Source: a virus
Taxonomy: Duplodnaviria; Caudoviricetes
Virus record (IMG/VR): IMGVR_UViG_3300042938_001620
Span: 1 to 36,184 of that record
Direction: 5' to 3' (one strand)
Length of the DNA: 36,184 nucleotides
Numbering within the stretch: the stretch's first letter is position 1; each line of letters starts with the position of its first letter. The translations under genes were made by a program, and so were the position numbers. Shown one piece after another: positions 735-36,184 of the stretch. The notes beneath the pieces are model-generated. The model saw nothing but the letters and a program-made list of their open reading frames with translations. It was not told where the DNA came from and did no database searches.

Positions 735-816
735 TATATTTTTCTTTATTGCTGTATTGATTTACGTATGATATTCTTATAATATCACGTTTTTATCTTA
801 TTGAACCTCTTAAAAC

Positions 817-824
817 TATAAGTA
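817..824 (+). promoter_or_regulatory. T4-like late promoter candidate TATAAGTA
   Basis: One mismatch to TATAAATA, just upstream of ATG 838; similar motifs at 1072, 3770, 12407, 14025, 14442. Confidence 0.4.
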
Positions 825-837
825 TTATAATAATACT

Positions 838-5903: not shown

Positions 5904-6869
5904 ATGAGTATTTTTGCAGAAAAACATCTTAATTACGAAAATATTATTTTAAAAAATAATAAGTCAATTGTTAGGTCCAGATCTAAATGCAATATAAAAA
6001 CATTCTTTGGTTCAAAAGAATATTCATCACCTGTTTGTTGTAGTAATATGAAATCATTACTAACACCAGATATATGTAAAATATTTGATGATAGACATTG
6101 GTTTTATGTATACCAAAGAATTGATGGATGTGATGATGTATTCAGATTCGTACAAAGAACAAGAATAGAAAATTGGTACTCAACATCTATTTCTGTAGGA
6201 ATAGATCAACAATGGATAGATCTACTTGAACAATTGAGTACTATGAATTATTCGGTTGATTCTATTACAGTTGATGTTGCTCATTCATTTAATGATAACA
6301 TAATTCCAATTATAAAAGCAGCAAGAAAATATTATCCAAATGCATTTTTAATTGTGGGTAATGGATCAACTAAAGAATGGGTTGAGTTCATGGAAAAACT
6401 TGGTGTTGATTGTATAAAACTTGGGATAGGTGTATCAAAAGCATGTAGAACAAGACAATATACTGGTTTTGGATCTAGCACTGTTTCTTCTTTGATAGAA
6501 TGTTTTGAACACGCAAAAAGCGTAAAGATAATGTCAGATGGAGGATTAACTGTTGATAATAATGGCGAAGTTTGGGTGGGTGATATTAATAAATCATTTG
6601 TTCTTGGTTCAGATTATGTAATGAGTGGTTCTTTATTTAGTAAATGTATAGATTCTCCTGCAATTTTAAACGGATATTATGGAAATGCATCAGAAAACGC
6701 AAAAGGAAATAAAAAACATGTGGAAGGAACCAATCTCAAAGTTTCAACCAACGGGTTAACAATATCCGAAATGTGTGATTTGATAGAAGACAGTATAAAA
6801 TCAGGAATAAGTTATTCTGGTGGAAAAGATTTAACTTGTTTTAGGAAAGTTGAATATTTTTTAATATAA
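5904..6869 (+). CDS. guaC: GMP reductase / IMPDH-family protein
   Basis: DVAHS, IVGN, KLGIGVSKACRTR (catalytic Cys), SDGG, VMSGSLF, YYGNAS, VEG and SGISYSG motifs; no CBS domains. Confidence 0.75.
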   Translation: MSIFAEKHLNYENIILKNNKSIVRSRSKCNIKTFFGSKEYSSPVCCSNMKSLLTPDICKIFDDRHWFYVYQRIDGCDDVFRFVQRTRIENWYSTSISVGIDQQWIDLLEQLSTMNYSVDSITVDVAHSFNDNIIPIIKAARKYYPNAFLIVGNGSTKEWVEFMEKLGVDCIKLGIGVSKACRTRQYTGFGSSTVSSLIECFEHAKSVKIMSDGGLTVDNNGEVWVGDINKSFVLGSDYVMSGSLFSKCIDSPAILNGYYGNASENAKGNKKHVEGTNLKVSTNGLTISEMCDLIEDSIKSGISYSGGKDLTCFRKVEYFLI

Positions 6870-7098: not shown

Positions 7099-7277
7099 AT
7101 ATTTATAAAGAATTGTGTGAAATAGAAGAATTAAAAGACAAATCATCTTTACAAAAGGATGAAATTTTGGATCATTATTTTAAAGATCCAAAAAAAGCAA
7201 AGAAACTCCTTCTAGAATTACAAGAAGTAGAAAAGGAATTAAATGAATTAGATAAAGAATTTTCAAAATACTTATGA
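7095..7277 (+). CDS. hypothetical coiled-coil protein
   Basis: ATGA overlaps on both sides. Confidence 0.65.
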   Translation: MNIYKELCEIEELKDKSSLQKDEILDHYFKDPKKAKKLLLELQEVEKELNELDKEFSKYL

Positions 7278-7771
7278 AATTTATTGAAATAATATTGGAG
7301 AACAGTGATAACAAATTTGCAAAACTCCACAAACCAGCATATAAGGCTAATCAAAATCCAGAAAATGGTATAACTGTTCATAACAAATCCGCTTATCATG
7401 TTATTAAAGATTGTGCTGATATAGCTCATAAATATATTCCATTATATGTTTTTGGTGAATATTTAGAACCTTTTTCAAAACTTAAAGGTAAATTTAAAAA
7501 ATCTGATATTGTTGAATTTATTCAATCCACTAAAAAAATTACTCAAAACGAACATTTGTTATGTTTGATTATAAACAAATCAAATGAAAAAAATAAAGCA
7601 CAGGAAGCTTTAACTATAAAAACAAATACTTTCGATTCAAGTGATCCTTATGGTGATTATGGTTCAGATTCTGGAGTTGAAGATACTAAAAAATATATAA
7701 ATCAATATAATCAAATGAATGATTCTGATACTATTCAACTATTATGTGAATTGTTTGATGTAAGTATTTAA
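7274..7771 (+). CDS. hypothetical protein
   Basis: 165-aa ORF coupled to upstream gene. Confidence 0.7.
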   Translation: MKFIEIILENSDNKFAKLHKPAYKANQNPENGITVHNKSAYHVIKDCADIAHKYIPLYVFGEYLEPFSKLKGKFKKSDIVEFIQSTKKITQNEHLLCLIINKSNEKNKAQEALTIKTNTFDSSDPYGDYGSDSGVEDTKKYINQYNQMNDSDTIQLLCELFDVSI

Positions 7772-7882: not shown

Positions 7883-7911
7883 TTGACATTTTTAGAAAAT
7901 TGATATATAGT
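7883..7911 (+). promoter_or_regulatory. sigma70 promoter of the ncRNA operon
   Basis: TTGACA-17-TATAGT. Confidence 0.8.
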
Positions 7912-7923
7912 TTTTATTAGATA

Positions 7924-7978
7924 GTTGGTTCCCGATGAGCCAATGGGACTGAGAATACTCGGTCGAATACAAAATCGG
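7924..7978 (+). ncRNA. pseudoknotted leader RNA element
   Basis: GTTGGTTC/GAGCCAAT stem with loop CCGAT complementary to ATCGG (7974-7978); second hairpin GACTGAG/CTCGGTC. Confidence 0.5.
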
Positions 7979-7982
7979 AAAT

Positions 7983-7994
7983 TGTTCTTTGACA
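7983..7994 (+). promoter_or_regulatory. boxA-like antitermination element
   Basis: TGTTCTTTGACA versus rrn boxA TGCTCTTTAACA, in a leader before stable RNAs. Confidence 0.55.
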
Positions 7995-8008
7995 TTCTAT
8001 TTTAACAG

Positions 8009-8088
8009 ACCCATCATGCCTCTACTTGCAAGAAGTAGTTTCTGAAGTACAAAGAAACGAAAGTGAGACTATGCACACTTTGATGGGT
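8009..8088 (+). ncRNA. unassigned 80-nt four-way-junction RNA
   Basis: Stems ACCCATC/GATGGGT, CTACTT/AAGTAG, TTTCT/AGAAA, AAAGTG/CACTTT. Confidence 0.55.
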
Positions 8089-8093
8089 ATTTC

Positions 8094-8216
8094 TTTTATC
8101 AAGCGCAGATGCCGTCGAAAGCTCTACCGCGATAGATGACAATGCAATGTTTCCGGAAACATCATTTAGTCTGTAGGGAACTTCTCCTAGTGATAGAATG
8201 AGGAGTCTTGATAAAA
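8094..8216 (+). ncRNA. unassigned 123-nt multibranch RNA
   Basis: Perfect 10-bp closing stem TTTTATCAAG/CTTGATAAAA; inner stems GCAGAT/GTCTGT, ATGTTT/AAACAT, CTTCTC/GAGGAG. Confidence 0.55.
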
Positions 8217-8223
8217 ACTAATA

Positions 8224-8295
8224 TGCAATATAGCTCAAGTAGTAGAGTCCTGATTTGTATTCAGGAGGTTGATGGTGCAAGTCCATCTATTGCAG
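8224..8295 (+). tRNA. tRNA-Thr(UGU)-like, degenerate
   Basis: Acceptor TGCAATA/TATTGCA; anticodon arm CCTGA-TTTGTAT-TCAGG; T arm GATGG-TGCAAGT-CCATC; lacks D-loop GG, position 26 and CCA. Confidence 0.7.
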
Positions 8296-8300
8296 AAGCA

Positions 8301-8418
8301 AGAAGTGTAGCTCAGTTGGTAGAGCAGCAACACCCTCTCATGAGACTCATGTCTCTAGGTAAAGGACCGAAACGCTGGGTGGTAAAGCAAGCCGTTGGTT
8401 CGAATCCAACCACTTCTT
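8301..8418 (+). ncRNA. tRNA-like RNA with anticodon arm replaced by a branched domain
   Basis: Acceptor AGAAGTG/CACTTCT; D arm GCTC-AGTTGGTA-GAGC; T arm GTTGG-TTCGAAT-CCAAC; 62 nt where the 17-nt anticodon arm should be. Confidence 0.75.
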
Positions 8419-8424
8419 CTACTT

Positions 8425-8489
8425 TGATAAGTCGGATGGGAATGGTGTGCTGTGCTGTTCTTAAAAAGCTAACCATTGCGGACTTATCA
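8425..8489 (+). ncRNA. unassigned long hairpin RNA
   Basis: TGATAAGTC/GACTTATCA (9 bp) and AATGGT/ACCATT. Confidence 0.5.
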
Positions 8490-8571
8490 CCAGACCCGAT
8501 TAGGCAGGGGGTGACAAGAAATCTTCGTCCAACGTGAGAAAAACACGGTAGCCAATGAAGAACTTTCTGGT
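8489..8571 (+). ncRNA. unassigned branched RNA
   Basis: ACCAGA/TCTGGT closing stem; CCC/GGG, TCTTCG/TGAAGA, CGTG/CACG. Confidence 0.4.
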
Positions 8572-8590
8572 ATTAATTTTTGAAATTTAT

Positions 8591-8999
8591 GGGGGTGTAC
8601 TGGTTTCGATTTATAATTGAAATCTAAGAGTGCATGTAGAGGATGATAGTTGGCCTCTTTAATAATCTATCAAAAAACTAAATGCAGAAGACAATACTTC
8701 TGATCTTTTAGCCGAAGCTGAATACATCTTCAACAATGCTGACGAGTTCCTCGCTGGCGTTGAAGACTACGCACTCGCCGCTTAAAAGCCTAACGGTAAT
8801 CCTCTAAACCCGTTTTGAATTGCAGAGGTTTTGACAATCTGTTAGACATCATGTAAAAAATATTACGGAGTTTGTTGTAACTTAAAAACAACAAGGTTGG
8901 TTAATGTGCCAAGATACCTTATAAATCGAATATATTAAAGCATGTAGTATCTTTTAGAGGATATTGTAAAGACAGGGGTTCGATTCCCCTCACTCTCCA
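8591..8999 (+). ncRNA. ssrA: tmRNA
   Basis: 5' GGGGGTGTACTGGTTTCGA; 3' GACAGGGGTTCGATTCCCCTCACTCTCCA; tag ORF 8684-8785 ending YALAA-stop. Confidence 0.93.
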
Positions 9000-9008
9000 G
9001 TTTCTATA

Positions 9009-9036
9009 TTGACAAAAATAAAAATTTTGATAAATT
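9009..9036 (+). promoter_or_regulatory. sigma70 promoter for tRNA-Tyr
   Basis: TTGACA-16-TAAATT with TGn extension. Confidence 0.6.
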
Positions 9037-9044
9037 AAATATAT

Positions 9045-9129
9045 GGGTAGTTCGCATAGCGGCAATTGCAGAAGACTGTAAATTTTCCCTCTTCGGAGTT
9101 CGCTGGTTCGAGTCCAGCACTGCCCACCA
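9045..9129 (+). tRNA. tRNA-Tyr(GUA)
   Basis: Acceptor GGGTAGT/ACTGCCC, anticodon loop CTGTAAA, long variable arm CTC-TTCG-GAG, T loop TTCGAGT, encoded ACCA. Confidence 0.95.
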
Positions 9130-34202: not shown

Positions 34203-36184
34203 TCACCAATTAATATCAAACTCAAGTCTTTTCCAAGTATTGGTATCTACACAAACATATAAATGAGTTGAATCATAAGCAATAGAACCAATATCTCCCA
34301 GATCAGAAGATAAGGTTGGAACTATTCCGGTTAATATTGGTCCAGCTTGTCCTGTTGCACCATCAAAACCAGTGGAACCTTGTAAACCTGTGGAACCTTG
34401 TAATCCTGTTGCTCCTAAACCGGTAGCTCCATCAAAACCTGTTGCTCCAAAACCAGTAGCACCATCAAAACCAGTAGCGCCATCGAATCCTGTTGCTCCT
34501 TGTAAACCAGTAGCTCCATCAAAACCTGTTGCTCCATCAAATCCTGTTGCACCTACTGGTCCACCACTTGGTCCAGTTGCGCCAACATCGCCAGTCGCAC
34601 CTTGTTCCCCTGTGGCTCCTGTCAACCCAGTAGCTCCATCGCTACCTGCAATTCCTGTTGCACCATGATCGCCTGTGGCTCCAGTAATACCAGTAGCTCC
34701 AGCTTCTCCTTGTAAACCAGTTGCGCCATCAACACCAGCAACACCTGTCGCTCCTGTGCTGCCTTGAATCCCCGCTCCAGTAGCACCTGTGGCTCCAGCA
34801 ATAGTTGCAGTTGTTTGAATCGTTCCATCACCAAATTTAATGCCACTTGTATCAACTGAAAGTGCAACTGTTGCGTCTGGAGTTACGCCAACACCAACTC
34901 GTCCAGCATTGCTAACCACAAATGCTGTAGCGTCTGGTGTTGTTTCATCTTCAACCCGCAAAGCCTCTCCTGCGCCTCGTTGCGTAACGCGCAATGCCGT
35001 TGTTGCACTTGTAAGATCAATTGATTGTGGTTGATTAAAAGCATTCTGTAAGTTTGTTTGTGCGGTGTTATAAACTGTGGAATTTGATCTGTATGCCAAT
35101 CTATTTCCGTTTGTGATCCATACATCTCCATTTACTGTTGTTGCTGGATTTGTACCTGTAATTGAATTTCCGATATTTAATTTGGAAGCGGTATCATCTG
35201 CGGCAACTACCAACTTGCCCGTCATTGTATCGCCGGACTTTTGAACGAATGCAGATGTATCTGGTGCGATACCTGTTGCACCCGTTAAACCCGTTGCGCC
35301 AGTAGCACCATCCACACCAGCAATACCTGTGGCTCCTGTAGCTCCCGTCACGCTTGCGCCTGTCGCGCCAGTTGCACCAGAACCAGTTGCACCTGTTAAT
35401 CCTGTAGCTCCATCAAAACCTGTGGAACCTTGTAAACCTGTAGCTCCATCAAAACCTGTTGCACCAGAACCAGTTGCACCTGTTAATCCTGTAGCTCCAT
35501 CAAAACCTGTGGAACCTGTTGCTCCATCAAAACCAGTGGAACCTTGTAAACCAGTTGCTCCATCAAAACCAGTTGCTCCATCAAAACCTGTAGAACCTTG
35601 TAATCCAGTTGCTCCATCAAAACCTGTTGCTCCATCAAAACCAGTGGAACCTTGTAAACCTGTAGAACCATCAAAACCAGTGGAACCTTGTAAACCTGTG
35701 GAACCATCAAAACCTGTTGCTCCATCAAAACCAGTGGAACCTTGTAAACCTGTAGAACCATCAAAACCAGTGGAACCTTGTAAACCTGTGGAACCATCAA
35801 AACCTGTAGAACCTTGTAATCCAGTTGCTCCATCAAAACCTGTTGCTCCATCAAAACCAGTGGAACCTTGTAAACCTGTAGAACCTTGTAAACCTGTAGA
35901 ACCATCAAAACCTGTTGCACCAGAACCAGTTGCACCTGTTAATCCTGTAGCTCCATCAAAACCTGTGGAACCTGTAGCTCCATCAAAACCTGTTGCACCA
36001 GAACCAGTTGCACCTGTTAATCCTGTAGCTCCATCAAAACCTGTGGAACCTGTAGATCCATCAAAACCTGTTGCACCAGAACCAGTTGCACCTGTTAATC
36101 CTGTAGCTCCATCAAAACCTGTGGAACCTGTAGCTCCATCAAAACCTGTTGCACCAGAACCAGTTGCACCTGTTAATCCTGTAG
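34203..36184 (-). CDS. collagen-like tail/virion fibre protein (5' end outside the window)
   Basis: G-X-Y repeats ([12 protein letters not shown]), [11 protein letters not shown] tail-fibre motif, C-terminal [17 protein letters not shown]; frame stays open upstream of 35351. Confidence 0.88.
35917..36184 (-). repeat. 78-bp higher-order tandem repeat within the collagen region
   Basis: Units begin on the + strand at 35917, 35995, 36073 and 36151. Confidence 0.85.

Follow-up and report, generated by a model that had tools for sequence, protein, structure and literature searches.

What is the role of a row of structured RNAs placed beside a tmRNA gene in the genome of a large phage, and do they constitute one RNA or many? 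We have examined this question in a stretch of 36,184 nucleotides, called here the window, comprising a contig of 36 kb that is estimated to be 18% complete. Its source is a large lake-water phage, complete relatives of which have genomes of ~200 kb, and DNA of the region is present in independent lake runs. Of the 95 window ORFs 33 were scanned against PHROGs, and the families returned were those of virion and tail proteins, of RNA ligase and thymidylate synthase, and HNH.

Layout of the array

The features of the region are as follows; all lie on the + strand.

7883..7911, +: sigma70-type promoter-like site TTGACA-17-TATAGT (similar sites precede the leader in relatives)
7924..7978, +: leader, a predicted H-type pseudoknot, possibly CptI-antitoxin-like (S1 covariation; comparison with CptI repeats)
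7983..7994, +: boxA-like antitermination motif (recurrence after the leader)
8009..8088, +: m1, almost certainly an orphan abiF (AbiFr, RF03085) antitoxin RNA (Rfam score of a relative; arm match)
8094..8216, +: m2, four-way-junction RNA with no Rfam family, core 8097-8213 (covariation)
8224..8295, +: tA, conserved tRNA look-alike with a Thr-type anticodon (Rfam; six of six full copies)
8301..8418, +: tB, tRNA body in which a branched domain replaces the anticodon arm (Rfam; five distinct versions)
8425..8489, +: m3, stem-closed RNA with no Rfam family (covariation)
8489..8571, +: m4, three-way-junction RNA with no Rfam family (covariation)
8591..9002, +: tmRNA, with a long tag frame ending YALAA (Rfam, 111.6 bits)
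9009..9129, +: second promoter-like site (9009-9036) and tRNA-Tyr(GUA) (9045-9129) (Rfam; site scan)

An earlier sequence-only reading had described a near-consensus promoter, followed by a region of higher GC content than its flanks, lacking any credible ORF and tiled almost without gaps by self-closing modules, and most of this description stands. The promoter-like site matches the consensus at 11 of 12 positions, and ties for best among the 48 sites of any grade found between 5000 and 13000, where 43.6 are expected by chance. A site of the same spacing lies before the leader in many relatives. The GC content is 0.43 across 7920-8575 and 0.26 in both flanks, and the spacers between modules are 26, 5, 7, 5, 6 and 0 nt. 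The sole long ORF on the + strand (8208-8537, with a TTG start) is broken in two relatives sharing these modules, with 5-10 stops in every frame. Self-closure holds for most of the modules, the exception being the leader at 7924-7978, which is a predicted pseudoknot and not a self-closed stem.

Scanning the window against Rfam names four units only. The two tRNA-like units (tA, 52.8 bits; tB, 47.2 bits) and the tmRNA (RF00023), all three of which had been proposed earlier, are confirmed, and the fourth is tRNA-Tyr (9045-9126 in the Rfam match), which has its own promoter-like site. There was no credible match for the leader, m1, m2, m3 or m4 of the window up to E 10, and a scan of the window, ten relatives and another 20 loci matched no ribozyme or riboswitch family.

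The tmRNA has tRNA-like ends and a tag frame; it was not called by ARAGORN in the window, and there is one extra U in its 3′ acceptor strand. The look-alike tA forms a full cloverleaf in all six complete copies, with the pairs of the acceptor, anticodon and T stems all kept and an anticodon of UGU or AGU in each. Canonical tRNA-Thr has a G18G19 D loop, a UUC T loop and an acceptor beginning G1-C72, C2-G71. None of these is found in any of the six tA copies; there the acceptor has U1-A72, G2-C71 and G73, the D and T loops are non-canonical, position 26 is missing, CCA is not encoded, and in the elbow pair G-C seems to have given way to U-A. By identity rules we presume that charging with threonine would not be expected. 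In tB a normal tRNA body carries a branched domain of 45-67 nt in the place of the anticodon arm, and the inner helix and hairpin of this domain covary by eye. Assignment of the tA/tB junction to the Y RNA YrlA (RF02553) was rejected, the scores being 21 and 30.8 bits with a cut-off of 69.

Contigs from six RNA runs included the tmRNA of relatives in every case, and in three of these runs contigs of relatives covered m2, tA or m3-m4 at a depth of ~2-10. Two of the six contained none of the modules, and in runs X23 and X24 coverage was confined to tmRNA and generic tRNA arms, a result that speaks neither for nor against expression of the modules. We take the signal as a hint only, because DNA in those libraries is not excluded.

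Exchange and covariation of the modules

Relatives were gathered by means of the flanking protein and of DNA patterns. The resulting sets, which overlap in contigs, comprised 19 loci, a set of 12, 37 m4 stretches, 28 leader stretches and 27 m3 stretches. The m4 pattern also selected 83 metagenome stretches, 66 of which were real m4; the other 17 were chance matches, including all those on gut contigs, and were removed prior to alignment.

The units recur in the order leader-m1-m2-m3-m4, and any of them may be absent, swapped, duplicated or solitary. At least eight other module types occupy the same slots of the array. In other phages modules are found deleted, swapped, split by protein genes or on their own, and tmRNA and tRNA genes are neighbours in many loci. 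Since the units are gained, lost and reshuffled singly across relatives, they make up a cassette of small RNAs rather than one ornate RNA, and we are highly confident that the region is a modular cassette of independently exchanged structured RNAs.

Five modules, the leader and m1-m4, keep their folds by compensatory change across 14-42 homologues. Pairs were counted on structures named by hand, using subsets of distinct sequences picked by eye, in which near-duplicates were thinned and rows that were truncated or had long inserts were dropped. This gave 42 of 70 sequences for m4, 25 of 30 for m3, 26 of 36 for the leader, 14 of 30 for m2, and 16 of 20 for m1 together with nine short abiF copies. 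The search for covariation that the earlier reading had called for revealed two-sided pair changes in every one of the five: at 13/20 pairs in m4, 10/22 in m3, 6/17 in the leader, 11/40 in m2 and 5/10 in the abiF core (m1 aligned with the short copies, with 98% of cells paired). The search patterns used to collect the homologues had fixed part of the core in both m4 and the leader. None of 500 shuffles reached any of the covariation scores, a result that relatedness alone can yield according to a warning of the tool. Sliding the leader alignment by one column gave a score of 0.158, compared with 0.163; the slide scores nearly as high because the variable hairpin is misaligned. The z-scores for folding of single sequences are modest (-0.3 to -3.4 for the modules); the structures rest on the covariation. 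Two-sided changes were absent from leader S2, the 3-bp stem of m3, the loop contact of m4 and the two-pair contact of m2, and these are predicted to be tertiary pairs.

The modules m2, m3 and m4 match no Rfam family in the window or in 30 further loci, and the view that they belong to no assigned family is upheld. In m2 the apical loop tetramer (8153-8156) is a palindrome in all eight stem variants, taking the forms CCGG, UCGA, UGCA and CUAG. The retention of the palindrome in four forms suggests that m2 might pair molecule to molecule via this tetramer. Module m3 has a covarying inner hairpin (8440-45/8455-60) and an A-rich 3′ bulge, and turns up, its core all but unchanged, in unrelated phages whose GC content is 57-58%. 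It contains a possible 3-bp pseudoknot, the stem of which never covaries and is broken in 2/25 copies; two weak homologues lack this stem. We take the layout of m3 to be similar to those of helix 18 of 16S rRNA and pseudoknot 1 of tmRNA. In m4 a near-invariant core with ~25 invariant unpaired nucleotides is combined with freely covarying helices and a possible loop-loop contact, and in several phages m4 is solitary, directly behind a promoter-like site.

A number of other readings of these modules were considered and rejected. For m3 there was no sequence support in two supplements for ToxI or TenpI, and a reading as a CRISPR repeat or guide RNA was not supported. Twister, HDV-like and hammerhead readings found no Rfam ribozyme match. 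In comparison with E. coli rRNA nothing significant was found for the leader or m1-m4, the best value, E 0.11, being insufficient to support m2 as an rRNA mimic. The place of tA and tB is taken, in most close relatives, by another module, and this one does match rRNA (23S, 1054-1089; E 3e-4).

No bacterial cognates were found for m2, m3, m4 or the leader, in tests that are weak because abiF itself was found in only 2/151 genomes. Models of m4 and m3 gave nothing real in samples of 151 genomes, at low power. The leader pattern made four matches in 185,579 prokaryote genomes, three of them by chance and one in a phage-type array inside a MAG, and a weak match to m3 (L228), which overlaps coding sequence, was rejected. 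Among the matches listed in a viral scan for m2 most were chance, as were the matches of module queries to plasmids and phages. A BLAST search of the region against cultured phages gave only tRNA-level similarity among the best 30 of 216 matches.

Module m1 and the abiF antitoxin RNA

The affiliation of m1 emerges from a relative (locus L033) in which the m1 slot, with m1 flanks, is occupied by a 37-nt element that has no insert and matches abiF (RF03085) with 49.6 bits (cut-off 37). Two insert-bearing m1 copies in relatives attain 27-28 bits against the same cut-off, and the window copy gives no RF03085 match even at E 10. Rfam fails to match the window copy because a 47-nt insert hides the abiF fold. 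In the window the arms (8009-8023 and 8071-8088) flank the insert (8024-8070), and are identical to those of L033 at 13/15 and 16/18 positions; all four differences together make two compensatory pairs. The match of the 3′ arm is unique within the window. Feature by feature m1 agrees with abiF/AbiFr, the RNA known as RCd22 in C. difficile: the lower stem has 7 bp and the upper one 3 bp, a bulge of 6 nt lies on the 3′ side, and the flanks of the loop are conserved. In the complete 203-kb genome of a relative (G003) the sole abiF match is an insert-bearing copy (E 5e-4). Judged by its sequence m1 is almost certainly homologous to abiF RNA, so that 8009-8088, which had earlier been assigned to no family, now has one.

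In the type III system to which abiF RNA belongs, the toxin is the HEPN ribonuclease AbiF (Abi_2, PF07751); the RNA is its antitoxin, and is reported to bind it directly and so to neutralize it in trans (bioRxiv 2025.04.15.648962; PMC12737573). The toxin dimer is reported to bind two RNAs or two motifs (bioRxiv 2025.04.15.648962; PMC12737573; PMC13064643). On sequence grounds m1 is predicted to work like the antitoxin of the AbiF system.

Is there a toxin for m1 to neutralize in the phage? Abi_2 was absent from all 20 m1-bearing records searched, one of them complete. A scan for the abiF motif, with a gap limit that excludes inserts of the window type, selected 39 viral stretches; Abi_2 accompanied 2 of these 39, and none of the seven in records that are at least 90% complete. 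The motif also occurs as an orphan in two cultured phages, Aeromonas phage PZL-Ah8 and Acinetobacter phage Acj61, and Abi_2 was absent from both genomes. A HEPN partner too divergent for PF07751 to detect may exist, because only one m1-bearing record is complete and the window represents 18% of its genome. In contrast to the abiF systems, the records searched contain no toxin gene, whether downstream of m1 or elsewhere; what comes after m1 in them is m2 or some other RNA module. Lacking Abi_2 directly downstream, m1 is not a member of an AbiF toxin-antitoxin system. Cognate abiF copies do exist: in one locus (L108) such a copy, with a loop insert, lies directly upstream of Abi_2, two more loci have the pair (L134, and L226 in a bacterial genome), and in a plasmid restriction-modification locus a copy of the same stem-and-bulge subtype as m1 precedes an Abi_2 gene.

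The array of a large lake phage differs from the known systems also in its many RNAs, and in the structured insert of m1, which at 47 nt compares with up to ~15 nt in other viral abiF copies. Most copies have GUAC as the tetramer in the loop of the insert (8047-8050), and one lineage has GGCC; each is a palindrome. On the basis of these two tetramer states m1 may dimerize through its loop.

Phage RNAs of related purpose are known. In phage PhiTE pseudo-ToxI repeats form an ncRNA that imitates a type III antitoxin and blocks abortive infection (PMC3475682); there the repeats are expanded in escape mutants, whereas m1 concerns another toxin family, and its copies, each single, closed by a stem and close to the native form, come from wild genomes where other RNA modules lie alongside. 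Solitary viral copies of defence RNAs act as inhibitors in the case of Racrs (PMC10651486) and viral single-guide RNAs (bioRxiv 2026.06.01.729453), where the target is a Cas complex and not, as here, a toxin-antitoxin nuclease. In cyanophage S-CREM1 an abiF sRNA, which has no insert, is annotated from Rfam near other ncRNA genes, and the portion of the report available contains no reading as an antitoxin mimic (PMC9964418). RNA antitoxin mimicry, Racrs and viral guide RNAs are known already. Within the literature searched, comprising several sources in part, there was no report of these modules or of an orphan abiF or CptI RNA as a phage counter-defence.

The leader and the proposed function of the cassette

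The leader comprises stems S1 (7924-28/7940-44) and S2 (7932-36/7974-78), a variable hairpin (7947-64) and an A-rich loop (7965-73). Three of the five S1 pairs are double-changed, with covariation in two divergent copies; S2 is invariant, and was partly fixed by the search pattern. Of 43 distinct leader contexts 33 are followed, at no more than 30 nt, by a boxA-like motif, defined by reference to the E. coli motif located in rrnB; among 1206 window tiles two have it. The motif overlaps a TTGACA, and variants break that hexamer.

We compared the leader by eye with CptI, in geometry and S2 sequence, taking the CptI repeats from the supplement of PMC3401426 and the numbering from PMC4627078. CptI is an H-type pseudoknot whose long A-rich loop lies in the minor groove. 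By this comparison both have a first stem of 5 bp, three nucleotides before CCGAU, and a second stem formed by CCGAU and UCGG; both also have an A-rich loop of 9 nt, in which the leader carries A, U and A where CptI has A29, U30 and A33. The leader differs in having a hairpin inserted before the loop, one extra linker base, U for G13, another sequence in its first stem and a second stem that does not covary. CptI forms tandem repeats with a terminator upstream of cptN, whereas the leader is a single copy followed by RNA modules, with no cptN. We judge the chances that the leader is CptI-like to be evenly balanced. The earlier statement that it could be assigned to no family is thus in doubt, although it has no Rfam match.

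No CptN or ToxN match was found in the complete relative G003, in a search run without a positive control. A CptI-derived pattern selected 12 stretches in viral records; by eye seven were chance or coding matches, and five were solitary CptI-like copies near tRNA genes. Four records were examined for these five, one context being a duplicate, and again gave no match to CptN or ToxN in a search without a positive control. One of the arrays concerned contains three CptI-like variants and a weak partial match to DUF3800-XI (28 bits, cut-off 37.8). The leader was also considered as a preQ1-I riboswitch, where a C that pairs with the ligand directly precedes the second strand of P1. In the leader that position is G, U or A, and there is no Rfam match at E 10.

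How might these RNAs act together? As one module is a copy of an antitoxin RNA lacking a toxin gene, the row is likely to be a kit of RNA decoys. We consider it reasonably likely that the cassette is a polycistronic RNA counter-defence kit, in which the AbiF decoy titrates a host HEPN toxin; that m1 inhibits a host AbiF is probable, and that the cassette as a whole is chiefly devoted to counter-defence is somewhat better than an even chance. Transcription from 7883-7911 would yield one precursor resembling that of an rRNA operon, with antitermination of the boxA type, and enzymes of tRNA maturation would release the stem-closed units as stable small RNAs. Module m1 would supply antitoxin in trans after the host's own supply fails, silencing the HEPN ribonuclease AbiF, a reported ancestor of Cas13, and through its palindromic insert loop m1 may form dimers suited to an AbiF dimer with two sites for RNA. 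The leader would act likewise on a toxin of CptN type; tA, tB and the tmRNA would buffer defences that cut tRNA or stall ribosomes, and m2, m3 and m4 would imitate RNA partners of other host proteins. A polycistronic precursor of decoys had been suggested earlier: the independent modules, boxA-like signal and orphan antitoxin agree with that suggestion, while the processing ribozymes invoked alongside it find no matching family. As a counterpoint to a kit of decoys, the sister module of relatives copies 23S rRNA and not a defence RNA.

The array might instead reprogram translation, its tmRNA, tRNA look-alikes and rRNA-like modules titrating ribosomal proteins, synthetases or stress sensors, with the abiF copy as a passenger. 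The tmRNA and tRNA genes adjoining the array in many loci, the 23S-like module of relatives, the Thr-type anticodon of tA on a non-Thr body and what we take as the layout of m3 all fit such a role, but none of the leader and m1-m4 significantly resembles E. coli rRNA, and the conservation and compensation of the abiF arms in m1 are unexpected for a passenger. We consider this improbable, but deserving of some weight. It is less probable still that the abiF-type hairpin is a terminator, attenuator or 3′-stabilizing element and the other modules processing or stability signals. At least six T occur in the 10 nt after 30/39 of the viral abiF motifs, several of which lie just after protein genes, a U-rich tract follows m1 in the window, and the abiF-motif RNA of C. 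difficile is reported also to limit downstream transcription (bioRxiv 2025.04.15.648962). The conserved unpaired loop flanks and 3′ bulge are not needed for termination, however, and m1 lies inside the array, after the boxA-like motif and before further conserved modules.

We give little credence to m4 or m2 as a new self-cleaving ribozyme or ligand-binding sponge, processing the precursor or sensing a metabolite. The compact junction of m4, its invariant unpaired nucleotides (in a core partly fixed by the search patterns) and covarying helices, and its solitary occurrence behind promoter-like sites are what such an RNA might show; against it stand the lack of ribozyme and riboswitch matches in the loci scanned, the closure of every module by its own stem, and the leader's lack of the ligand-pairing C of preQ1-I. 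That m1 is the antitoxin of a divergent toxin encoded elsewhere in the phage is even less probable. Complete AbiF systems are reported on prophages (bioRxiv 2025.04.15.648962), and RNA and toxin occur together in the 2/39 viral records, most of the records being fragments, but the complete G003 has no Abi_2 match, and cognate copies lie directly upstream of the toxin where m1 precedes other RNA modules. The proposal of one ornate RNA of the GOLLD or ROOL kind, spanning the 650 nt that precede the tmRNA and with embedded tRNA-like domains, is largely refuted and retains scarcely any probability. The setting in a phage tRNA cluster is that of GOLLD and ROOL, shuffled sequences fold less well than the region as a whole (z -2.2), and a thermodynamic fold of the array places ~88 expected pairs between units compared with 108 within them. 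However, the units of 55-120 nt come and go independently, being deleted, swapped, split by protein genes or solitary elsewhere, and do not form one continuous conserved fold, and neither GOLLD (RF02032) nor ROOL (RF03087) is matched.

Returning to the counter-defence kit, we can extend it to the tentative and rather doubtful generalization that phage tRNA islands would be exchangeable libraries of RNA antitoxins. Each module would be a stolen RNA partner, of AbiF, of CptN or, for m2, m3 and m4, of undiscovered systems, some with palindromic kissing loops that would bind dimeric toxins bivalently. If that were true, m2, m3 and m4 would be baits that reveal new anti-phage systems. Loop inserts hide antitoxin RNAs from Rfam, and decoys are thus probably undercounted. 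The analysis adds three well-supported RNA families (m2, m3 and m4), the protein partners of which may be new defence nucleases, and offers a testable function for phage RNA islands that are usually left as structured RNA of unknown role. As orphan abiF RNAs are present in cultured phages with named hosts, evasion of AbiF by means of RNA would be open to direct test.

Antitoxin-like RNAs in other phages

The abiF antitoxin RNA (RF03085), to which module m1 of the array is homologous, is also found in cultured phages, and solitary copies of a CptI-like antitoxin, a type that the array leader may represent, lie near tRNA genes in four unrelated phage records (L numbers denote stretches from other records).

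Antitoxin-like RNAs in phage records
L387:1501-1538, abiF RNA, Aeromonas phage PZL-Ah8
L388:1501-1539, abiF RNA, Acinetobacter phage Acj61
Hit H60, abiF RNA, Salicola phage CGphi29
L233:790-830, CptI-like copy
L232:640-830, CptI-like copies
L229:785-830, CptI-like copy
L234, near 790-830, minus strand, CptI-like copy

The AbiF toxin family Abi_2 was absent from both of the cultured abiF-bearing genomes that were checked, and neither CptN nor ToxN was matched in the four records with CptI-like copies. L232 carries three CptI-like variants and a weak DUF3800-XI match. The abiF RNA of PZL-Ah8 is placed between the portal and scaffold genes, and is preceded by a T7-type promoter-like sequence. Orphan abiF motifs followed by U-runs were also seen around position 1501 of L104, L118, L127, L136 and L106, where the genes immediately 5′ appear by eye to be ssDNA-binding protein- or GroEL-like.

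Further RNAs in related arrays

A module of about 200 nt in L001 (7779-7977) and many relatives matches the uL11-binding region of 23S rRNA, and occupies the slot filled in the window by the tRNA look-alikes tA and tB. At least seven more types of stem-closed module occur in these arrays; Rfam gave nothing convincing for those scanned.

Further stem-closed modules and group I introns
L006:3763-3834, module
L015:7303-7405, module
L003:7265-7346, module
L014:2400-2550, module
L079:1141-1232, module
L044:1382-1466, module
L030:2295-2365, module
L058:1599-1841, intron
L053:1986-2172, intron
L174:2077-2283, intron

The introns lie inside or adjoining tmRNA and tRNA genes of relatives. The window tmRNA, not called by ARAGORN, has one additional U in its 3′ acceptor strand (8991-9002), which may alter alanylation. 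RNA module m3 is present in the high-GC phages L242, L246, L249 and L252, three of which have a second structured non-coding stretch just upstream (upstream of 1200).

Surrounding genes and host

Around the RNA array there are inserted small ORFs, variable in number, whose N termini have a common MKNKDQILLE-like motif; in L001, L002, L003, L013 and L015 they lie just 3′ of the gene matching window 7274-7771. Upstream of the array the phage carries a GMP reductase-like gene (PF00478; window 5904-6869). GC content reaches 0.44-0.52 in the tail-fibre region (window 34500-36000), compared with 0.31 overall. A leader-m1-m3 array is found in L140, a 4-kb contig (C186 of genome G063) assigned to a Chitinophagales MAG; this contig may be a misbinned phage fragment or a hint of the host.
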